A DNA stretch of 63,469 nucleotides, the filler included, from Collodictyon triciliatum (Eukaryota), in assembly GCA_043381765.1 (NCBI GenBank). It is 12 parts of 12 records of this genome, joined end to end, with 100 filler letters (N's around TTAATTAATTAA, not from the genome) between each part and the next. Parts side by side here need not be neighbours in the genome. Positions count along the whole stretch, not along the records: positions 11,967 to 17,845 come from JBHJMP010004865.1; 11 more parts are not named here. One strand, written 5' to 3'. Below are positions 36 to 57,100 of the stretch, one piece after another. Position 1 is the first letter of the stretch. Each line of letters begins with the position of its first letter. The translations under genes were made by a program, and so were the position numbers. A model generated the notes under the pieces. It was not told where the DNA came from, ran no database searches, and saw nothing but the letters and a program-made list of their open reading frames with translations.

Positions 36-83
36 AAAAAAACAAAAAATAAAATAAAAAACAGGGCGTCGTAGTTCGCAGCG

Positions 84-3000
84 ATGTTCCGCCCAGCGCG
101 TACTCTGCTTCTGTCAAGGCCGCCCAGTATGTGACCACACTCACCCCACTCACCAACCAACTCACTCACCCCACTCACCAACCGACTCATCAACTCACTC
201 AAAAAAAAAAATGCACACTTCCACAGTCCTCAGCAGCGCACAAACACAGACAAAGACGCAGACACAGACACAGACACTCTTCCTCCGAGGTCATCTCAGC
301 AAACACACGGCAAAAGAAAGCCTTGGCCCACCCCAGCAAACAGCGCTTCAGAGACCATCCTCACGCGCTTTAGACCCTGTTGATATCTTCCTCCCAGCTC
401 GCAGCCGCTTCCAAGGAGCACGCGACTATTTCCTTCAGCTTCTGCGCGCACATCCGTCCACACGAACATCATTCGTCCCCAACAGCCCGCCCGCCACGGC
501 AGAGACCGGCAGCCTGGCGGCCGAGAGAGCGTCTGGGCTCCAAGGCGTGTTTTCAGCTATGGTCCAAAAGGTCTCTGAGAAGCTGCACAGCGCATTTCAG
601 ACAGAGCCCAACATACACAACTTCCGCAGATGGTTTCGCTATGAACTCAGCAGAGGCGCCCCCATGGACTTGACAGAAGTCCTGCGCAAGGCACAAACAC
701 ATCGCCTCCCGCTAAGTATCGAAGATTACAACCGTTTTCTGGCTCATTGCCGCCCTCCGCAGAGTCTTGTTCATGAAAGCGACGACCAAGAAGTGGCTAC
801 ATCCTCATTAAAGAGTCTGTCGGATTCACCCGGGTCCAGTCTTTGCCTCAGTCGCTACAAACCTGGCCAGGCCATCGAAATATACGAGGCTTTAATACAG
901 GACAAACTCGTACCCAATGTTAACACAATGTCACATTTGGTCGCTGCAAGTCAAACAGTAAAAGAATTGCAGTACACACGAGATGTTTTGACAGACAGAC
1001 TCTTCAGTGTTATACGGAACCCGGATGCGATGGAACAGGACAGAGTCATTTTTGGAATCCCGTCAGATGAAATAACTACGACGGCATCTCGTATTCTTTT
1101 GAGCTATTATGATTCGCTGATGGATGATGTTGTTGTCCGTACCGCGGAGCAGGTGGATGACTTGAACTTTGAGCTATTAGCCCGGCATAATCGCAAAAGA
1201 GACTATTTGCAGCTTGCTAAGGAGAGGCAGAACAAACATGAGGACACCTCTAAGGATGGAACACATACAGACGATATGATTCAGAATCCGTACAAAAACA
1301 TCATTTCAAGGATACTGAACAATCCAAACGAATCCTCATTCTTTAAACAGCTCCGTCTGGAAACCCAGGCTTTAGAAATAGCTGCATCTCAGTATAGAGA
1401 GATGGTTCAGGATATGACAAAACGCGGCCAGGCTGCGAGTTTACTACCTGCAAACGAGATAATTGCATCATGGATTGAGCCTCTCAGAAGCGAAATCGAA
1501 AAGGAGCTGCATACTATCTCCAACAAAGAAAAAGATGTTAATAGGCAAATATATGGTCCATTCCTGGGGATGATATCTCCCACAAAGCTTGCAACGATAA
1601 CTGTGCACGAAACTATTGGCTGCATCATGGCTGAGGGTGTTTCGGTATGTCTCTTTTGAAAGTATATTCCATTCTTATCCAATAGAAGAAGAGGAAAAAG
1701 AAAGAGAAATACATAAAGCATCCAACTAACTTTTGATTATAATTATTTCAATATCGTAGCTTTGTATGTCACTTATGTATGGATCAGAGTGAAATATGAA
1801 TAATTTCCTCTCGTTCATTCGCTAAAAAATGTTTCATGTACGATGGAGTAATTAAAAAAAGCACACTATTTTACACAATTCCCTATAGGGTGTAAAAATT
1901 GTGAAGGCTTGTATCACGATAGGGCGAGCTGTACAATTAGAAATCGGCCTCAGAATGATGAAGGACAAAAGGAAGGATAAATTAGTAGTTCCCAGTAGTG
2001 TAAGTGCTCTCAAGCAGCTGGGTTCCAAAAATGTCGGAGAGTTCGCTCCTACCATCTGGGCCAAAGCAATCCAGGCCAAATTGGGTGCCAGTTTGATGAG
2101 TCTTCTTTTAAAGTCTGCTGAGTTTAAAGACGAAAGTGGTAACTTTGTTAAAGCCTTCCGCCACTACTACCACTTCCACTCAATGAGACGCACTGGACAT
2201 ATTACATGCCATAAAAGCCTTTGGGAGAAGTTTTCCGATGGATTTGAACGACAGGTAATTTGATCATTATGTTTTGCTCAAATTATATAAATTGTCCTGT
2301 TTATTTCCTTGTTTCTTTGTTTCTTTGTTTCTTTGTTTCTTTGTTTCTTTGTTTCTTTGTTTCTTTGTTTCTTTGTTTCTTTGTTTCTTTGTTTCTTTGT
2401 TTCTTTGTTTCTTTGTTTCTCTGTTTCTCTGTTTCTCTGTTTCTCTGTTTCTCTGTTTCTCTGTTTCTCTGTTTCTCTGTTTCTCTGTTTCTCTGTTTCT
2501 CTGTTTCTCTGTTTCTTTGTTTCATATATTTATTAATAAATTAAGTAGTTTCCCCCTCATTAATTTGTGTCATCTTACAAATATTTCTGCTTTGAAAGAA
2601 TAGCAAGAAAATATTACCAAATTAATTATATTTTTTTTAAAAAATAATCTTAGGAAGCCCTCCACCCGATATACTTGCCTATGGTGGTTGAACCCAAGCC
2701 CTGGAGCCACGTCAACAATGGGTCGTATCTGACCCTTAGATCCCCGGTGATGCGTTGCCGCGGTTCTCGAGCGCAAATCCAGGAACTCCGAACGTCCGAC
2801 CTGTCAAAATTACATCTGGGGCTCAGTATTCTTGGCAAAACTGCCTGGATTGTCAACGAGCCTGTCTTTGAGGTGATTGAGCGCCTGTGGGATAATGGAG
2901 GAGGGATTGCCGAGCTTCCACCCCGACAAAACTACATCATCCCATCCGAGCCAGAAAACTTTACAGGTCTGTCATTCGAGGAGCGACGAAACTTTATGGC

Positions 3001-4660
3001 CACAAAGAACCGAGTAGAGCAAATGAATCGAGACCTACACTCCAACCGAAGTGGGATCACTATTCGCTTAAAAATAGCCCGTGAGTTTATTGGAACAAAG
3101 ATGTATTTCCCTCATAATGTGGACTTCCGCGGACGAGCCTACCCACTACCTCCGCATCTGAATCATTTGGGACCGGACGTGTGCCGTGGCATGCTACTCT
3201 TTGCTGAGGGAAAGCCTCTTGGAAAAGATGGGCTGCGCTGGATAAAGATCCATCTGGCCAATCTGTGCGGTAAAGACAAGATGTCATTTGACGACCGTGT
3301 CCGGTACGTTGATGAACAGATTCCAAACATCATCGACTCGGCTGAAAGGCCGTTGGAGGGTGGCCGGTGGTGGTTGAGCACAGATTCTCCCTTTCAAGTT
3401 CTTGCAGCCTGTATCGAATTGAGGGAAGCCATCCGAAATCCCAACCCAGAAGACTACGTTTCACGCCTTCCTGTTCACCAAGTAATCCTGAGCCTGAAAG
3501 ACATTGACAGATTGTGTAATCGGATGCTCCCCTCATAATATATTCATCGCTAATAGCCTATTCTGACCCTTGATTGCACTTTTTGTTTGTCTTCTACCTA
3601 CAGGATGGCTCTTGCAACGGCCTCCAACATTACGCTGCCCTTGGGCGGGATTACAGAGGTGGTCTTCAAGTAGGCCTCGTCCCCACCGAAACCCCGCAAG
3701 ACGTTTACCAAGTAAGGCCGCTATTTTTTTCTTCATTTTACATTAATTTTTTTTTTTGGTACTTTCCTATTCATGAATACATTTTACCAGTTATGCATGC
3801 ACTTCAATTTTTCTTTTTCTTTTTTCTGTCATCTTGTGCACTCCCTTGATTCATAAATACATCTCATATATAATAAAAAGGTTGTTGCAGACTCTTTAAA
3901 GGACAGAATAAACAAAATGTCAGAAAAAGGCCTCCCGACTGCTATGCTGCTTAACGGCAAGGTGGAACGCAAGATTGTGAAGCAAACAGTAATGACCAGC
4001 GTTTACGGAGTCACATATATTGGAGCCCGTCGACAAATTCAAAATCGGCTTGAAGAACGAGGAGACATTCCTGAGGACAAACTATACTATTGCGCATGTT
4101 TTCTGGCACGCCACACCTTGGAAGCCTTGGGCGAATCCTTTATCGGTGCAAAGTTAACGATGGATTGGCTTGCGCAGTGCGCACGATTGATTGCATCCAC
4201 CGGTCGCCCTGTATCTTGGGTGACTCCACTCGGAATTCCTATTGTCCAGCCATACCGAAAGTCCAGCAGCGTTCAAGTGAAAACGTCACTCCAACACGTT
4301 GTACTTGCTCTTCACAACGATGATTCTCCGATTATGGCGGGGCAGCAAAGAACTGCATTCCCACCAAACTTTATTCACTCCCTGGATTCCACACACATGT
4401 TTATGACTGCTATCGAATGCGATCGACAGAATGTCGCCTTTGCGGCTGTGCATGACTCGTTCTGGACCCACGCAGGAACGACAAGTACGATGAATTCAAT
4501 TCTGCGCAATCAATTTATCCGCCTTCACTCGGAAGACCTTTTGAATGAGCTAAGGAATCAGTTTATGGTTCTTCATCCTGACATCACCTTCCCGGAAGTT
4601 CCTCCGCGTGGTGACCTGAATCTCGAAATCATTCGCGGTAGCCCCTACTTTTTTGACTAG
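84..4660 (+). CDS. POLRMT: Mitochondrial single-subunit (T3/T7-type) RNA polymerase, 6 exons
   Basis: Exons 84-126, 227-1644, 1889-2254, 2654-3481, 3604-3711, 3881-4660 splice in frame with GT-AG. Motifs: [70 protein letters not shown]-terminal SPYFFD. PPR-like helices in exon 2. Confidence 0.96.
2309..2523. repeat. Intronic compound 8-mer microsatellite (TTGTTTCT)n/(CTGTTTCT)n
   Basis: Direct inspection; lies in a POLRMT intron. Confidence 0.95.
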
Positions 4661-11742: not shown

Positions 11743-12671
11743 CTATTGAATAAAGGTTTATTAACCGCCTTTGTTTGTTTGTTTGTTTGTTTGTTTGTTT
11801 GTTTGTTTGTTTGTTTGTTTGTTTGTTTGTTTGTTTGTTTGTTTGTTTGTTTGTTTGTTTGTTTGTNNNNNNNNNNNNNNNNNNNNNNNNNNNNNNNNNN
11901 NNNNNNNNNNTTAATTAATTAANNNNNNNNNNNNNNNNNNNNNNNNNNNNNNNNNNNNNNNNNNNNTGAATTTAATAAAACAAAGAAAGTTTGGGGAAAT
12001 GAACGGTGGTGGAAAAGAGCAGAGCGATAAACCAATATACATTAGAGGGGCTCCGTCTTCACCGCACATGAGTAAAACAATCTCCGATAGTAATGCCAGT
12101 TGTTGTGTAGGTGGTTTGTGTTGTCTGGTGCTTTATTTTAGGGCCTCAAAATGGAAAATATACGCAGCCGGAGATGATATTTTCCGATGTGAGTCGGCAA
12201 GTAGGCTCAAGCCAAGCAAGTACCCAACCCCACGCGACGGGCCAACAGAGGACATGGAGCCACGCATCCGTGTCCACCCGACCTTGTCAGTATTTCAGTG
12301 TGGGTCTTCGCCCAAGCGCTCACAACACACTTTTTAAGCGGTGTAATTTTTTCTGGTAAGACATGCACACATCTAAACATGCATAAATTCTTTAGAAGCG
12401 ACTGTGCTCCTGTTTATTCGCTCCAAACAGTCAGCTTATCGTTCATGCTAATCAATCGTTAAAGTTTACAGCCCGGGAGGGGTTGTGTAACAGTGATTTG
12501 TTTTCATGATAAGGTGAAGCGAGGAGAAAGGAAACAATGTTGGAAACCACCGGACAGAAAGTAGAGACCTTCCAATTCCACTTTCATGACGTGACCTCCC
12601 ATAGTACGCCACAAGCGCATGAAAGGAGAAAAAGAGGGCTCTACCACAACAACTCTTTGCAGATGCAAACA

Positions 12672-12750
12672 CAGACACTATGCAAATCCGCTCCCACAAC
12701 CCACGTTGTTGGTGGTTTAGCGTGGGGGCTTCACAAGGGCAAACGTGTGC
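12672..12750 (-). promoter_or_regulatory. SECIS element (form 2, GUGA variant) in the GPx 3' UTR
   Basis: Minus strand reads GTGAA GCCCCCACGCT AAA CCAC CAACAAC GTGG GTTGTGGGAGC GGAT. This gives a GA/GA core, an 11-position helix II with 2 mismatches, unpaired AAA and an apical mini-helix, about 400 nt after the stop. Confidence 0.88.
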
Positions 12751-13128
12751 TGGTTTTGCTACAATCTGGCAGAGATAAATGCAGGTAAATCTCGGCAAGA
12801 CAGGGTAATCTGCTTCCTCAAACAGAATGTTGGACGTTGATATGAGATAATTCTCTCTTATCTAGTCAACGATTCTGTTCAATCATAGCAGAAATCTGCA
12901 GCAAAGTTGTGAGCCGTCGGGGTTGACACTGACCCATTCTGGAGAGGTTGGGTCGGTCGCAACAGTCGCTGTATTGTAATTACAAGATCTGCAGTGAGTA
13001 CATGATGTGCAAGAACAAAGCACTCAAATCGGAACATGTCAGGGACAGGTTGAATAGCCTGAGACAGTCACGGCGGGTCAAAAGTAAAAAAGGGAGGGAG
13101 TCGTAGAAAAAACCTTGATTGAAAAGCC

Positions 13129-14807
13129 TTAGGCAGAAGAAGATCCGGACGCGGGGCTCTTCTCCAACAGAGCCACAATATCCTTTTCGATCTCGGCAGG
13201 ATCGACTGTGGTTCCGTAGCGCTTGAACGGGACACCGTTGCGGTCAACGAGGAACTGGACGGTGCGGCGCATTGTAAAAAAATAAAAATAAAAATGAGAA
13301 AGAAACACAGAAAAGTGCTGTCTCCATATTCAAACCATTCGGGTAACTAAAAAGAAAAAGAAAACAAAAGAAATAGCAAGGGAAAATATACGCCGCAGCC
13401 ATTCTTTTCTAGGTTTTCAGTTCATAAAGTTTGACAGAGCGAAAGAAAGTGGAAACCGGGAGAGAAACAAAAAGAGCGCTCTCTTTTGATGCGTGGTGTT
13501 GCAAAATGTGTACCTTTGTAAAGTTCCACTTGATCATGGTGAACCATCCGTCAGGAGCCTTATCCTTCAGGAAGGTCCACAAAGGATGCGCTTCGGAACC
13601 GTTGACGTGAACCTTCATAAGATGGGCTTTAGCACTGTCTTCTGGGGTATTAGGACCACTGCGTAATATTTCTAGAAGGCTCCAAGTGCATAGAATGAGG
13701 AGCTGAGGGCTGTTTTTTTATTATTATTATTATTATTATTAGGCGTAATACTTTTGCGGAGCTTGCAATTACCTTATCCATCATGCGGAAGGTGACTCCA
13801 AAGTCGGAGACAAACTCCTTGATCTCTTGGTTGGTGGGGAGTTCCTGGAAGAACTGGGACGAGGGAAATCCGAGGATCTCGAAACCTAGTGCGAGGACAA
13901 GTTCAGGTCAAACCGCCTGTGTTTAGTGGCAGAAAAGCACGTTCTTCTTGCTGTTGAGTAGCCTATAAAGGAATTGCTTTAGGAGGGAAAAAATCGAGGG
14001 AAAACAGAAAAAGAGCTTGTTGAGAGTCCCATAGTGAGACAGCTACAGCTCTTTAAATCCAGAGTAAGGTAGATTACCTCTGCCTTGGTATTTCGTGTAC
14101 AGTTCCTGCATTTGTACATAGTTGATGTTGGTCTTTCCTCTGCAGGGTAGGTTGTAGAATAGGGTTAAGCTTATAGAGTCGTGAAAGGCCGGTCAATGTA
14201 GTTAAAAAAATGAGTTAAACAGCCCAGGTCTTCCTTGCTCAATTTAGAACCTCAACATGGTTTAGTGTGTCAGTAGGACAGATCGTGTGGAAACATTTGA
14301 GACTCACCATTTAGATGCGACGTTGGAGATGAGGACGACCTGAAAGGTATTTCAACAGGCAGTTTTTCAGAAGGTGCAGAGTAAGTGATATACAGCAAAG
14401 TGTGAGCCATACATTCATAGAGACAAAGGTTGTGTGCATATTATCCTCACTTTCCCCTTGAATTCCTTCATGGAGACCTCCTTCATGTCGATGTCCTTCG
14501 CAGTGAAGTCATAGATGGTTCCGGTGTCTATAGCAGGAGGATTATTAACAGAATAACCTAGCCGGCTCGACAATAATACTGTTGTTGGGCACGTAAAAAA
14601 GATTTCTCCTGGAGACATATGGGAGTGTGCTTTGTAGGACAGTTTTAAGTAAAATATTAGCATAGAGGAAAGAGAAGAGAAAGGGCATGAGAAAGTATCC
14701 TTGGAGAAGCCAAGCCGAGTAGGGAAACGGCGCATACTTTCAGCCATGGTGCTGATGCGAGATCTGCCCAAGCAAGACAACCTTCGAAGCAGCCTGCTTT
14801 TGATCAT
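13129..14807 (-). CDS. GPX4: Selenocysteine glutathione peroxidase, GPx4/PHGPx-like, 7 exons
   Basis: Exons 14807(or 14747)-14738, 14527-14451, 14339-14308, 14139-14078, 13885-13773, 13612-13514, 13254-13129. Spliced protein reads IYDFTAKDID...VVLISNVASK-U-GKTNINY...GFEILGFPSSQFFQE...VNGSEAHPLWTFLK...IKWNFTKFLVDRNG. Confidence 0.95.
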
Positions 14808-15585
14808 AGTTGCATGTTAGCGTGGTCTTTAGTCAGGCTTGCTTCTCTTATGTCTCCTAAGTTCGGTCTCGAGTGTCTTGGTGCCAGTCTCTCATGAATT
14901 CTTGTCTTGCCTTTGCTTTTCATTTCTCTTCTCTCACACTTTCACCGGACGCACCAACTCAAGTGAAGGAGCGGAAATTTGACAAATGGCCAAGGCAGCC
15001 ACTTTTTATAACCATCCATTTGCAGATCATGCGCAACCCTCATGCGTCACCCACCAACCTATTGCAGAAGCCCTTTTCCTGAGTAGGATGCTGGGTTGTG
15101 TACATGGATTCAATTATTTCCTTTTTTCATTTATTCGGAACATTTCCTTTTTAGAACGATTTCCGTCCAAATTTCCTGTGGAAGAAAAATGATTTATTAT
15201 GGGTGTTGACCTTTGTATAATTAGTGGAATTTATATATAATTATATTAAAATTGTTCAAAATGTCCTATTTTATATCAATATACATTTATTTTTTTTTGA
15301 AAACTATAATATGTATTGATAAATTCGTGCTCATAAAATTGCAATGAATGATTTCGATGGCAACTTAATCAATCAGAGACTTTGGGCACCGATCGCACTT
15401 CCCACCGCCACATCCATTTGCTCCCCTCTCTTTTCCATTTATCGTTTAAAGAATTGACGTTGATTTATTAGTATCTTGCTTCTCTTTGATTGAAATATAA
15501 AATTCGAGGCCTTGTCCTTTGTCGTGGGTGGGCCAACATATCCTCATGTACCCAGCGTCCCTTCCTTTCGTTCATCATCGAGCGG

Positions 15586-17675
15586 TCACCAGTTCATTAT
15601 AAGTTTTGTCATAAACTCGTATGTTACAAAGGTGATGGCGGTGTTGGGAATAGACCTCAGCATGTGAACTCCCATTCCTTGGTAAAGCGCTCGAAAGCCT
15701 TCTTCCTGCACGTCATAATTACAGTCAGATTCACTACCAGCTTCAACATCCCATGGAAAAACACCGGGTGAGCTATCGCACCACCATCGACTTCCACCAA
15801 AATAAATAAACAAATGAATTAAACCCTTACTCTGGCTATTAGTGACGTTGTTTGGAGGAGATTTGTGTATTTGTGAGGCTTCCCAGGTTCGGGAGACCGT
15901 TGTTCACGCAGGCGAGTCCTGATAACCTATACCATATACATCTTGTTAAAAAAAAATAAAAGGGTTTGTTCTATTGTTGGGCTTTGAATTTACCAAAAAA
16001 TTTTTTTATTTTTTTTATTGACAAAGAACCTTCACCAATACATCAAGATTACCTCGTGTGGGTAAATACTAATGCATGCAAGGAACTTTCCAAAGGAGGC
16101 AGAGAGGAATAAATAATTAAGAGATGGGTCTAGTTTTTATAGTTATTATTTTAGGAATAAAAAGGCTCATAAAATAAATACAAAAAAATCATACACCTCA
16201 CCACAACATAAAATGTTATATCATAGCAAAAAAAAAAAAAAAATATTAATAAAAAATACTTGCATTTTACTTTCAATCAAGGATATAACAAAAGAAATAA
16301 TTATAATGAAATTGATGATGTCTAAATATTTCAAGGTACCTTCACCGTACCGAGTCTTATATACGTCTTTAAAAGCCTCATAAACAGTAAATTGTATCGC
16401 ACCCTCCAGATTTCCTTTTGAAACATATGCAATGCATTTGAGATATTATAATAAATAATCTAAAATGCATGAAAAGAATGAAATAAAGAAACTGCCATTA
16501 ATTATTTTGTATATGTTAATTTTTTTCATTTTTATCACATATTTTGATAAATGGGCGCATTCATACAATAAATAATATAAATAATATACATATATGTAAA
16601 TTTGAGTTGAAACTTATGTTGGAATGTAAAGCTGCTTACCGACATATGAAGCTGACAATCCTTTGTAAAACCCACGAATACCTTCTTCCTTATATATCCG
16701 GCGTGTTGCATCCAAAGCACCAATATAGTTGTTCATCGATTTGTTCGAAGTTGCCTATTCAATGCCGAATCAAATATGCATTTTACTAACAAACTCTCAC
16801 CGGATCGTTGCATTAGAGTATCTTTTAGGAAAAAATAACGGGATTTTTCAGGTACATATGATGCTCATGTGTTTTTCTGAGATCTATATTACCATTGCAT
16901 GATTCTGGTTTGTCTGGAGTTGTAGTCTCGTTTTTACTAGCCATACAGGGTTCATTACAGAGGATGATATTGCACCCGCAAAAAACCCCGAAAGTGGGTG
17001 TACATAGTGGGTCCCCCCAAGTGGTGTCGCATTAAGGCGAGACTTAAGAAAGTCGTAACTTGCAAAGTAGACGGACCTACCATCATTAGATTAAGTAAAT
17101 AACAAGGGACGGTCATCATATATAGATTCTCTTCGAATTAAAGAGAAAATGATTACAGAAGTTGCATTTTCTAACCTATGAGGAATGACACCAAATAGAG
17201 TGGCACCGAGTCCCCTCCAAAGACCTCTGATACCTTCTGTTCTCTGAATGTGTCTTATTTTTTTTTTTTAATAAAAAACAACATAAATAACCGAGTAAAT
17301 ATGCGTGGTAAGTATGAAACTGGGTTGATAGACATGTAGCTTCACAGGTCATAATTCTCAATTCGACTCACAATATACACTCTACTAGTTTGCTATTAAG
17401 AGCATATCCCCCCTTCGGTATATCTACAAGGCTTGACTATACAACGGAATAAATTAACAATACGACCTTTATTATTAGTCATGTAAATGTTGTCCTGAAT
17501 ACGAGCGGTGCAATCATAATTTAAAACAAACTATTTTATTTTTGTTTTGTTTTAATGACCGTCGTAATTTTAATATCGGATTCAGATGGCGTAATCCGTC
17601 ATTAAAAAAACCTGCAATCGAGTCTTTACAACTTCCAAGGGGCATGTAACCAGGCAACCAATTGTCCCCCCAATT
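15586..17675 (-). CDS. Mitochondrial carrier, SLC25A33/A36 (Rim2-like pyrimidine nucleotide carrier); 5' truncated
   Basis: Three carrier signatures (TCPLEVVKTRLQ, NPVWLVKTRLQLQ, YPHE|VIRTRLRE) plus EEGIRGFYKGLSASY and RSIPNTAITFVTYE. Confidence 0.9.
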
Positions 17676-17746
17676 CTATGAATCGAGAAGAGTAGTTACA
17701 TTTTCATAATTATTCAGATTTGCAGAGATGTTCAAAATCATTTTTT

Positions 17747-17845
<99 letters not shown>

Positions 17846-48076: not shown

Positions 48077-49984
48077 GCGGACATGGTGGCCTTGATTTAG
48101 GAAGACCAAAGACACCAGGCATTCAGAAAAATGAAATCAAGACACCTGAGAATAGAAAGTCTCCTTCTCAAACACCGAATGATGATGATGATAATGATGA
48201 TGATGATAATGATGATAATGATGATAATGATGCAGATATTGACGAATTGGAAAATGGTATAAATGAATTACACCAATATTCTTTAAATTTTTTTATTTTA
48301 GAATAGAAATAATATGAAATAATATCTCTGTGATATAATAATCTTAGCAATCTATATTGCTTTTTTTTTAAAAATTTTTTAGTATATATTGTTCTGTCGG
48401 TAATGAATGCTACATTATTATTAAATATCTAAAAAAAAAAAACAAATACCCTTTATAATAGGAGGGGATATGAGTGATACAGATTTAAGTAACATAAGCG
48501 GTTTAATTATTGACACATCATTTCGTGCAAAAGATGAGGAATTGTCTCCATATGATGAAACTTTCAAACAATTCATTCCCATGCAAAAATACAATCCTTC
48601 ATGTGTCTGGACCTGCGATGCTAAGGGGGTTATTGGAGTACCTCTCTTCCAAGGGGAATTATGTCCTGCAGAAACAACTTGTGAATTTGAAAGAAAATCT
48701 GACAATTTAAAAAAACACAGTGTTGGTAATTGCATTGATGAGAAACAGTTTATTTGCTCACTTCCATACAACGAGGATTGCAGTGGGTATTCAATCAACT
48801 TATGGACTTTAAGCGTGAACACCACCAAAGATAAACTCTCTTTAGATTACACACTCCTGGTGATTAGCGAGTCAAGACCATTTGCTATTTACAGCATTTA
48901 CGAAGAACATGTTTCTCCTGTTGTAACAGTAAACTCCTTCTTTCTCCCAGTTATATATGAAGAGAACGATTGCAATATCCTTTATTGTGTCTTTGAATAC
49001 GCTCATTTAATCGTTATTGAAGAAAAAGCCATACCTGGAGATATTTCATATGTCTATTGCCCAGTTCCGAAGACAAAAACCCTACCAAACTTTCTTCGAC
49101 TGACCTACAACCACAAAATCTTCAGCCATCCATATCCGTTCCGTATAACACCGATGATGAATCACCTCCCAAAGGTGAAACTGACTATTTGTGCAATCGT
49201 TCGCGGAGAAGGGTATAATTTACACGAGTGGTTGGAATTCCACTTAATGATGGGCTACAAACGATTTGTTCTATACGACAATAATCTGGAGCCCGACACT
49301 GTAATGGAAGATATTGCGATGGTTTACCGCGATGTTGTGATTATAGTTCCATGGAAATACAGACATACCCAATCTAATGCACTTACTGACTGCGCCATTC
49401 GCTATGGAGGCCAAACTGATTGGATGAGCTTCATCGATGTGGATGAGTTTATGATTCCACACCCAAATTACACAGATGTATCTAGTGTCTTAAATGACAG
49501 GTTTTCAAATGTTCCGTATATCTCGAGTTACTGGCTCACTTTCGGTCCGTGTGGGGAGGAAGAAAAATCACCAGGAGAATTGACAATGTCTATGTGCAGG
49601 TCAACCACTTTGGCAAAAGGTATGAAGCCAATGCCAAAGCCAACATTCCAGCCAAAGGACGTGGCTGGGATTCAGGGATTTAGCCCACATGTAGTGCGAC
49701 TCAAGAAGGATTTAGGCATCAAGGCTATTAGTAAAAGTGAAAAGACGAATGAATTGCTGCAGATATACCATTATCGCTACCGAACTTGGCCCGAATTCCA
49801 TCGTCGTAGACTCGGAGACACCGCAGCACGAACCATCCACCGAAGTGAAAAGGATGTTCTTCGAATGTGGACTGCAGCCAAAAAATCGCTCCAGCCTCTG
49901 CCCGACTCCGATAATGCAATCTTAAAATATATTCCTACTCTGAAGCAACGAATGAACGAAAGGATACCTGATTCTGTGTTCTAA
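48077..49984 (+). CDS. Glycosyltransferase family 92 / DUF23-like; 5' truncated
   Basis: Exons 48077-48256 (Asp-rich stem) and 48462-49984; LTICAIVRGEGYNLHEWLEFHLMMG..FVLYDNN and WMSFIDVDEF (DxD). Confidence 0.88.
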
Positions 49985-54130: not shown

Positions 54131-57100
54131 ATGGCGAACCTGAGACCCAGCAAAGAGGACATGATCCGACAAATCATGGAGATCGGCTTTTCCCGGGAGC
54201 ATGCCATAGTCGGTCTTGAAGTCACGGGCGGAGACGATCCCGACCACGCAGTCGAGTATCTCATGCAGATTCTGCCCATCCAAGAGGAAGACATTCCACA
54301 ACCCGTTTCTGCCCGCGGCCTTGGCGAGCCTGTCAGTCTCTTGCACGACTCTGGATTTCCTGTGCGCCCCTCTGCCAACTCGGCCTTGCAGCCATCGGCA
54401 AATCCTGGTTATTTTTATGTTTATATACAAGTTTGATTCTATTTCAGGTAGAGAGAGAGAGAATGGAAAACTACGATAATAAAGTATTCACTCATCCATA
54501 AAATTAAGTAATTCCCAGTCATACACAAACTCGTCGTCTTCTTCTCACCCAACCATGAACTGCATATCATAACTTGTAACCTGAAAGATGAATATTTTTT
54601 ATCGGTTGTTTCATTATTAAGTCGCAACCACCTTTTCGTACTTTTTTTTTTTCCAAAAGAAATAACCACAACAAAAAAAAAAAAAAAACTGCTACAACAA
54701 CCTCATGCACCTGCCTCTAAACTACTATGGTTTTCCCTTAATCTTGGTCTACCCAAACAGAGAGGACAAAAAGGCCAGATATGTCTGTATCAACAAAGCA
54801 ACAGCCGCCAATAGAGTTTGTGTCCGCAGCACCATCTCCCCAGCAACAAAAGCAGCAGGTTCAGTTGCAGATGGAACGGCCACTTACACAGACAGGATCC
54901 AATATTCGTACGCATCTTGGACAAGGAAACCCTTTGCCATCCCCCAGAGCAGAGGCAGCGACCATGTATCTACCCGAAGCAGCTCGCGTACAGATGAAAC
55001 CAGAGCCTCGGTATGAACATTCACATCCAATCTCCACAAACCTTGAATCTATCCCCGATGCAGCTCAATCCACGCAAACGCAGTCACAAATACCATCACA
55101 AGGACAAATGCAAGCTCAATTGCAGAACCCTGCTGTTGCTACAACAACAACTACTACTACGAGAGCAAACACTATTTGGTCTGTTCCAATTGACTCAAAT
55201 CACGCTGAGAGCTCGGCAACACCGAATCGACCCAATGCCACACTGGAAGGGCCTGCCCGAATCACCTCATCTAGCGACTGGATTTTCAAAGACATCGATC
55301 TCTGGGACGATGCAGCAAATGGCGACCTCGAGATTTTCAAACAACACTTCCAAAAACTGAACATTGATGTGGATTCAACTAACACAGATGGGCTCACATT
55401 ACTCCATATATCTGCTTACTATGCAAATCCAGATATTGTTGCCTACTTGCTCCAAAAAAAGGCCCATGTCCACGCCAAATGTGCTCGTGGAAACACACCA
55501 TTGATATACGCGCTGAAAGGAAAGATCGACCTCAGCCCAATATCCCCTCAGCATGGCCAGCACTATGTTGTTGTGATTGCACTTCTAGAATCGCATGCTC
55601 GGCTCGATATAAGCAACGACGAGGGCGTCTCTCCTTTGCACCTGGTCACTCTATGGCCAACCACTGATGTGGATTTGCTGGAAACATTCTTGGACATGGG
55701 TGCTGTCGTGCAGCAGAGCGATCACCAAGGACAAACACCTCTCCACTTTGCTGCAGACTGCGGTAATCTGCTTGCAGTCAAAACTCTGCATTCCAACAAT
55801 GCGGTCATCTCTGCCAAAGACTTTAATGGACAATTCGCACTGCATTTGGCAGCTGCACAAGGCCATCAAAAGGTGGTAGAGTTTCTACTCATGGTTGGGG
55901 CCGATCCGAATGTCCAGGATGTTGACGGAGAAACGCCACTTCATCGTGCATGTCACAACGGGAGATACTCAGTTGTCTCCACACTTTTACGTGCATCAGC
56001 AGATGTGCATGTGTTTTCCAAAAGGAACAAAACTGCCTTTCAGATCGCAAAGGAGAAGCAGCACACGGACATATTGCCTCTCTTTTACGACCGCTTTCAA
56101 CCAGCAGCAGATACACCAAAACCTTCAGGCACTGTGCAAAGTCAATTCAAATCTCCAGCTTTCGCCAGAAGCTCGCTGCAAGCAAATGGGCAACCTTCAC
56201 CCTTATCTACCTCCATAGGCCAACCATCAATCCAAACACCTGCACAAGCAACTGCTTACTCAGCATCGCAACCATCAAATGTCACTTCACAGCTAAGCTC
56301 GTCACNNNNNNNNNNNNNNNNNNNNNNNNNNNNNNNNNNNNNNNNNNNNNNNNNNNNNNNNNNNNNNNNNNNNNNNNNNNNNNNNNNNNNNNNNNNNNNN
56401 NNNNNNNNNNNNNNNNNNNNNNNNNNNNNNNNNNNNNNNNNNNNNNNNNNNNNNNNNNNNNNNNNNNNNNNNNNNNNNNNNNNNNNNNNNNNNNNNNNNN
56501 NNNNNNNNNNNNNNNNNNNNNNNNNNNNNNNNNNNNNNNNNNNNNNNNNNNNNNNNNNNNNNNNNNNNNNNNNNNNNNNNNNNNNNNNNNNNNNNNNNNN
56601 NNNNNNNNNNNNNNNNNNNNNNNNNNNNNNNNNNNNNNNNNNNNNNNNNNNNNNNNNNNNNNNNNNNNNNNNNNNNNNNNNNNNNNNNNNNNNNNNNNNN
56701 NNNNNNNNNNNNNNNNNNNNNNNNNNNNNNNNNNNNNNNNNNNNNNNNNNNNNNNNNNNNNNNNNNNACAACAAACTCCAATCACACCAACGGCATATAT
56801 CCCTGCTTCAGCAACAGGAGCATCCAATACGACAGCAGGCCCGATATCACAGCTTCCTCAGCAGGTAAGCTATATGCAGTCGCCAGGGGTGAACACCGTT
56901 CAAGCACCTGTATCCACTGCTATGCCGCCACCTTCGCAAGATTATTTCCCTCACAGGCCCCCAGCGCCTCTTGATTTCAAAGCCGTCCCATCCCCAAGTC
57001 GACCGCGTATATTTTGATTACTCAATTTTAGTTCTGCTTTGTTTAGATACTAATTAACCAATTTATCAACCAATATATATATATATATTTATTGCTATCA

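Follow-up and report, generated by a model that had tools for sequence, protein, structure and literature searches.

A glutathione peroxidase gene of Collodictyon triciliatum with a catalytic-site UGA codon split by an intron and a candidate selenocysteine insertion element in its 3' untranslated region

The window analysed here is a stretch of 63,469 nucleotides (nt) of Collodictyon triciliatum DNA (GenBank assembly GCA_043381765.1), made up of 12 parts of 12 records joined end to end with filler. It contains an expressed glutathione peroxidase (GPx) gene in the part taken from JBHJMP010004865.1 (positions 11,967 to 17,845), in which a UGA codon at the catalytic position is assembled by splicing and is proposed to be read as selenocysteine (Sec, written U). 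The organism is a freshwater protist related to Diphylleia (CRuMs). The original prediction, which drew attention to this codon, gave no strand; the gene is read here on the minus strand, where it has seven coding exons and, in the spliced frame, a 172-residue product with U at position 40. The interval 14078-14339 coincides on that strand with the stretch bounded by the first base of exon 3 and the last base of exon 4, and the split codon consists of T14309 and G14308 on one side of intron 3 and A14139 on the other, so that it is present only once the intron has been removed. All six introns of the coding region are bounded by GT..AG, and their phases are 1, 0, 2, 1, 0 and 0. The features of the gene are given below in the order of transcription; the joints are those found in contigs of the four sequencing runs described further on.

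14738-14747, minus strand: coding exon 1, with the start codon ATG at 14747-14745 in the context ACC ATG G and 10 coding nt; joint 14527|14738 in four of four runs
After exon 1, minus strand: intron 1, phase 1, 210 nt
14451-14527, minus strand: coding exon 2, 77 nt, with a weak Pfam GSHPx match to profile positions 1-22; joints in four of four runs
14308-14339, minus strand: coding exon 3, 32 nt, encoding VVLISNVASK and the TG of the Sec codon
14140-14307, minus strand: intron 3, 168 nt, GTGAGT...CTGCAG, phase 2, interrupting the TGA; spliced out in contigs of four of four runs
14078-14139, minus strand: coding exon 4, 62 nt, in which A14139 completes the TGA and is followed by GKTNINY...
13773-13885, minus strand: coding exon 5, 113 nt, with the catalytic Gln71 and a Pfam GSHPx match of 28.8 bits
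13514-13612, minus strand: coding exon 6, 99 nt, with Trp127 and Asn128; joints in runs X1 and X3
13114-13254, minus strand: coding exon 7, which contains the TAA stop codon (13131-13129) and, after it, the initial 15 nt of the 3' untranslated region (UTR)
12969-13113, minus strand: 3'UTR intron, 145 nt, GT..AG, beginning 15 nt past the stop codon; joint 12968|13114 in four of four runs
12513-12968, minus strand: last exon, wholly 3'UTR; its 3' limit is approximate and is the end of the X1 contig, 237 nt beyond 12750

The ATG at 14747 is taken as the start because the contigs of runs X2, X3 and X5 differ upstream of it and do not carry the in-frame ATG at 14807-14805; a start at that upstream ATG was rejected on the same comparison, which was made by eye on the loose ends of the contigs. 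The stretch 14807-14748 (minus strand) would add 20 residues, is rich in Arg, Leu and Ser, and resembles a targeting leader. Intron 5 contains an (ATT)n run at about 13716-13745. Three stray open frames that overlap the GPx gene and its UTR gave no Pfam match. Nothing was found in a bacterial promoter and terminator scan of 12300-12600, a scan that is not meaningful for a eukaryote.

Part of the stretch was found in 20 public sequencing runs, 18 of them recorded as RNA and most of them freshwater and aquaculture metatranscriptomes. RNA contigs from runs X1, X2, X3 and X5, which come from four studies, were aligned to the window. The joint 14139|14308 is present in all four runs, with one contig in each, as a skip of 168 nt bounded by CT..AC on the plus strand; a single base can be assigned to either exon at this joint, and the mRNA sequence is identical for either cut. 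All eight exons are joined by seven joints in the contigs of X1 and X3, and five and four of the seven joints are seen in X2 and X5, respectively. Over its 1038 nt the X1 contig agrees with the window without a mismatch. Zero intron depth in the contig tables was not counted as evidence against unspliced forms.

At the junction, exon 3 ends GTC GCA TCT AAA TG and is followed by gtgagt, and exon 4 begins A GGA AAG ACC after ctgcag, so that the mRNA reads NVASK-UGA-GKT. The original prediction had proposed from the genomic sequence that the UGA arises only by splicing of TG and A around an intron, and had named transcript evidence across the junction among the checks. The contigs of all four runs use exactly the predicted acceptor. 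The neighbouring AG, two bases downstream, had been expected to shift the frame, and it does so, giving TGG and then early stops.

Pfam scans were made exon by exon. Exon 5 alone matches GSHPx (PF00255) at 28.8 bits, above the cut-off of 27 (E 9.8e-07, profile positions 54-92), and weak matches, colinear with this one, come from exon 2 (positions 1-22) and exon 6 (positions 94-108). The intervening profile positions 23-53 number 31, against 32 residues from exon 3, U, exon 4 and a split Gly codon, and the gene and the profile are therefore about colinear over this part also. Among the Protein Data Bank (PDB) matches of exon 5, 18 of 19 are GPx4 or designs derived from GPx4. The first-ranked PDB match of exon 4 is poplar GPx5, with GPx4 chains also among the best. 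In the alignments to GPx4 and poplar GPx5 chains, residue 1 of exon 4 falls on the residue directly after the catalytic one, and exon 5 then continues colinearly.

The spliced protein was also aligned with MAFFT to all 120 homologues returned for an open reading frame (ORF) of Diphylleia rotans. In the column of U40, 109 of the 120 homologues have Cys and four have Trp, and the remaining seven are empty, beginning 2-24 columns later. The UGA thus stands in the Cys/Sec column and GPx4 chains are among the best PDB matches, in agreement with the earlier proposal that it occupies the GPx catalytic position by comparison with NVASQUGKT of GPx4. The rest of the catalytic tetrad is kept, with Gln71 in 118 of the homologues and Trp127 and Asn128 in every one of them. 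The four rows with Trp (P0013 and three others) and the seven late starts are probably Sec-containing GPx proteins that were called under a table in which TGA is Trp, or truncated at the UGA. Cys is entirely missing from the spliced protein, both as peroxidatic and as resolving residue, which leaves U40 as the sole possible redox residue. As judged from its sequence, this pattern is that of a predicted Sec-containing, glutathione-type (GPx4-like) enzyme and not that of a thioredoxin-type one.

The coding sequence is conserved on both sides of the UGA. A diverged contig of run X2 (record 4), 90-95 % alike to the window, crosses the junction as a 28-letter loose end, which, read by hand, shows the TGA unchanged and, in the nine codons that precede it, five synonymous substitutions. 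Six of the 13 differences of this contig are listed by position; they fall in five codons of exon 5, of which four are changed synonymously and one from Glu to Asp, and Asp is the residue of D. rotans at that site. Among the coding differences listed for run X3, three of four are synonymous.

The nearest relative found is the D. rotans ORF in EukProt (P0002; EP00002_Diphylleia_rotans_P005337-P005340), which has 118 residues and is identical to the protein downstream of the UGA at 96 of them (81 %). This identity, like the freshwater origin of runs that contain the stretch, fits a freshwater protist related to Diphylleia. This ORF was the only match in a protein search with exon 5 extended in frame by eight intron-encoded residues; a protein search with the C-terminal exon alone gave no match. 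It is labelled complete, yet its initial residue is the Met that stands first after the Sec column, 10 alignment columns away, as would be expected if an in-frame stop codon stood at the same place; the comparison covers the truncated protein. The forecast that genes of this kind are liable to be mis-annotated is thus borne out in the closest relative, the ORF of which begins only at the first Met after the Sec position.

A metagenome scan with the D. rotans ORF gave 80 loci, of which 77 have a Cys codon at the catalytic column, one has TGA (L056), one lies outside the motif (C, then A) and one is too short. At least 78 of the 80 have a Cys codon in apparently unspliced genes, and none is closely related, the best identity being 56 %. 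L056 is a metagenome contig of 1028 nt that appears to be a polyadenylated Sec-GPx mRNA of an unrelated eukaryote, with NVASK-TGA-GKT at the same column.

Reading of the UGA as Sec would call for a selenocysteine insertion sequence (SECIS) in the mRNA, and two stem-loops of the last exon have to be considered.

12679-12743, minus strand: proposed SECIS, form 2, with GUGA at 12734-12731, an 11-nt helix II strand, AAA at 12718-12716, a CCAC/GUGG mini-stem and the 3' GA at 12688-12687
12809-12892, minus strand: stable AUGA hairpin in the 3'UTR, upstream of the candidate SECIS; -34.5 kcal/mol, z -4.7, with none of 200 shuffles as stable

The first was located with a SECISearch-like pattern, consisting of (A/G)TGA-N, 10-13 nt, AA, 4-26 nt, a complement with at most two mismatches, N-GA-N and a 7-bp helix I. 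Over both strands of the whole window (127 kb) this pattern gave six cores, two of them with helix I, at 12734 and 16800. In the minimum-free-energy fold of 12660-12765, a long helix I is followed by an internal loop, GUGA faces GGAU, CUAAA is unpaired, and the CCAC/GUGG mini-stem is formed. Helix II contains one C.A mismatch in the fold, and its 11-nt strand has two mismatches by the architecture check. The stem-loop 12679-12743 thus has the helices, quartet, unpaired AA and mini-stem of the canonical SECIS architecture, by fold and pattern together. Of 4227 Rfam families searched with a 77-nt stretch, only SECIS_1 (RF00031) matched. The match extends along the entire model (1-64) on the strand of the gene and scores 16.6 bits, with E 0.41, which by our arithmetic is about 1e-4 for SECIS_1 alone. 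The distance to the core in the mature mRNA is about 250 nt from the stop codon and about 650 nt from the UGA; mammalian UGA-to-SECIS distances are given as 207-5207 nt in PMC3316567, and the distance here is within that range. The remaining UGA/GA pairs of the 3'UTR were rejected as SECIS candidates, as they lack helix II or lie inside the UTR intron that is spliced out. The second pattern hit with helix I, at 16800 (minus strand), has a GTGA core and no SECIS_1 match.

Several results weigh against the reading of the UGA as Sec through this element. The 16.6 bits do not reach the SECIS_1 gathering score of 35, SECIS_1 was not listed in Rfam searches of 3201 nt, of 469 nt or of the whole window at gathering, and the last of these gave no hit of any kind. 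The 77-nt stretch was selected after the pattern scan, and a control stretch of equal size matched an unrelated Rfam family at E 0.053, so that E-values of this order arise by chance. The fold of the candidate is not more stable than those of shuffled sequences (z -0.68 and +0.03). A scan of the window with ARAGORN gave not a single tRNA, and the reading frame ends checked there are TAA and TAG, none being TGA. The RNA evidence consists of assembled contigs only, which drop rare isoforms, and the RNA status of run X3 is a guess made by the tool.

The Rfam score was calibrated with controls. The SECIS of L056 (AUGA core, 806-867), taken as positive control, scores 20.2 bits with SECIS_1 and is likewise under the threshold, while the negative controls, the hairpin 12809-12892 and the pattern hit at 16800, have no SECIS_1 match. 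Scores of this size are therefore what true SECIS elements from outside the vertebrates receive, and the 35-bit gathering score is uninformative for such sequences. In L056 a SNORD30 C/D-box small nucleolar RNA model (Rfam, 27.3 bits) overlaps the SECIS, probably through shared UGAUGA...CUGA motifs. Taken together, 12679-12743 is probably the SECIS of the gene.

A different assignment would make the AUGA hairpin at 12809-12892 the true SECIS, alone or together with the GUGA element, with the GUGA_AA_GA arrangement at 12679-12743 then a product of chance. The hairpin has AUGA, the commoner core, in the 5' arm and GA in the 3' arm, is unique within the window, and is far stabler than its shuffles. 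No differing letter is listed across it in the four runs (the span is full in X1, X3 and X5, and covered as 12809-12897 in X2), whereas the coding exons of those same contigs do differ. Against this assignment, the hairpin has no unpaired AA 10-13 nt past the core and failed the pattern scan, its helix above the core is about 17 bp long, and both possible registers of the GA quartet need a bulge before helix II. An 89-nt search made in the same way as for 12679-12743 gave no SECIS_1 match. As a canonical SECIS it was accordingly rejected on AA spacing, quartet register and SECIS_1 alike, and we regard it as unlikely to be the functional element.

Decoding of the UGA as Cys or Trp, by a variant nuclear code or by efficient near-cognate read-through and with no selenium involved, is favoured by the Trp in the catalytic column of four homologues and by the lack of TGA among the checked stop codons. 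Long open frames elsewhere in the window amount to 2473 amino acids (2321 in Pfam-supported frames and 152 in one frame without a Pfam result). Their 26 Trp are all TGG, their 38 Cys are all TGT or TGC, and there is no in-frame TGA. None of these frames needs a TGA for either residue, and TGA is therefore not in general use as a codon for Trp or Cys. The Trp rows are, in our judgement, most simply gene calls made under a table with TGA as Trp, and the 3'UTR contains a SECIS-like element. Such decoding is consequently very improbable. That the UGA is a stop, its meaning by default, leaving a decaying pseudogene or a 39-residue peptide with an mRNA targeted by nonsense-mediated decay, is scarcely credible when all catalytic residues other than U lie intact past it, strain differences downstream are mostly synonymous, D. 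rotans is 81 % identical over 118 residues there, the TGA is kept in the diverged transcript, and spliced transcripts occur in runs of four studies.

Several of the long frames outside the GPx gene could be assigned to families. Exons of a phage-type (mitochondrial-type) single-subunit RNA polymerase, with Pfam RPOL_N and RNA_pol matches, lie at 58-4660 (plus strand); the frame 3857-4660 (plus strand) ends SPYFFD and then TAG, and resembles the true C-terminus of an RNA polymerase. Two intron-free, Pfam-supported frames with TAA ends encode a GT92-family glycosyltransferase of 519 amino acids (48425-49984, plus strand) and an ankyrin-repeat protein of 708 amino acids (54742-56868, plus strand). 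A long (ACAA)n microsatellite at about 11800-11886 lies beside two N runs around the letters ttaattaattaa, at about 11886-11966, which resemble a scaffolding linker.

The locus is best explained as an expressed nuclear Sec-GPx gene of the GPx4-like, monomeric type, with a split UGA that is read as Sec by means of a 3'UTR SECIS, and we give this reading a probability of roughly 0.85. Removal of intron 3, a phase-2 intron that interrupts the codon after its second base, would assemble the UGA, and the ribosome would meet it at codon 40 of the mature mRNA. The GUGA_AA_GA form-2 stem-loop in the wholly untranslated last exon would recruit the Sec-insertion machinery, Sec-tRNA(Sec) would decode the UGA, and translation would continue to the TAA at 13131-13129, with selenocysteine as the peroxidatic residue of the GPx. 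We infer on this basis that the stem-loop 12679-12743 acts as the SECIS, that the organism has the Sec machinery, and that the protein contains selenium. The mechanism is the ordinary eukaryotic one of a UGA and a 3'UTR SECIS. Because splicing precedes translation, the ribosome would see an ordinary UGA, and the split is without consequence for decoding; it matters for annotation. A more elaborate form of the proposal, which we consider unlikely, is that these would be the first documented selenoprotein and SECIS of the collodictyonids (CRuMs) and would come with a two-part module, in which the GUGA SECIS is accompanied by the invariant AUGA hairpin 75 nt upstream as a second, non-canonical SECIS or a regulator of Sec insertion; the position of the UGA on an exon junction may even tie its decoding or decay to marks left by splicing.

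None of the six frames of the genomic sequence contains a Sec codon that is split by an intron, so that annotators based on ORFs, and many based on homology, will truncate or miss the gene, and the public protein of the nearest relative is already truncated in this way. The locus, with its splicing verified by RNA, can serve as a clean test case for pipelines that annotate selenoproteins. It also points to the use of selenocysteine by a collodictyonid-type protist and adds a candidate SECIS with a GUGA core from a deep eukaryotic branch. In a literature phrase search, neither selenoprotein nor selenocysteine occurred together with Diphylleia or Collodictyon in any paper, and selenoproteins are new to the taxon within the reach of that search. 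The same kind of search found no statement of a split Sec codon, a result that does not show the phenomenon to be unreported; phrase matches in the TOGA2 preprint, PMC3316567 and PMC4528330 concern other subjects. From a density of about six introns per 172 codons, some half of which interrupt a codon, we estimate that a few per cent of intron-rich selenoprotein genes should have their Sec codon split, and such a split is therefore not claimed here as new.

Among the sequences compared, the D. rotans GPx ORF is highly identical downstream of the UGA, and its start after the Sec column would fit a shared in-frame stop codon. L056, with about 50 % identity to the D. rotans ORF, shares the TGA column with the C. 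triciliatum gene, and its 3'UTR SECIS, like the candidate there, scores below the Rfam threshold. Its SECIS has an AUGA core, and its sequence, being spliced or intron-free, is uninformative on the position of introns.

Vertebrate selenoprotein genes described in PMC3316567 have a two-exon 3'UTR in which the final exon contains the entire SECIS, and the same layout is found here, with a UTR intron at 13113-12969 and the candidate SECIS in the last exon; those genes belong to other protein families and another kingdom. Platyhelminth Sec-GPx mRNAs with a SECIS are reported in the available text of PMC2679728, and the quartet of Schistosoma japonicum GPx1 (SjGPx1) is of the same GTGA_AA_GA class as the one proposed here. 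S. japonicum is of the animal lineage, and that portion of the source mentions no Sec-codon intron.

Mammalian GPX4 shares with the C. triciliatum gene the NVAS-x-U-GKT context, the Sec/Gln/Trp/Asn tetrad and the lack of a resolving Cys, and its SECIS is in the 3'UTR, as is the candidate SECIS here. The cores differ, being AUGA in the SECIS of mammalian GPX4 and GUGA in the candidate. Unlike in mammalian GPX4, the candidate SECIS is separated from the stop codon by an intron, and no conserved mitochondrial leader was seen in the C. triciliatum gene. The Sec codon of mammalian GPX4 stands within an exon, whereas that of C. triciliatum is split by a phase-2 intron.

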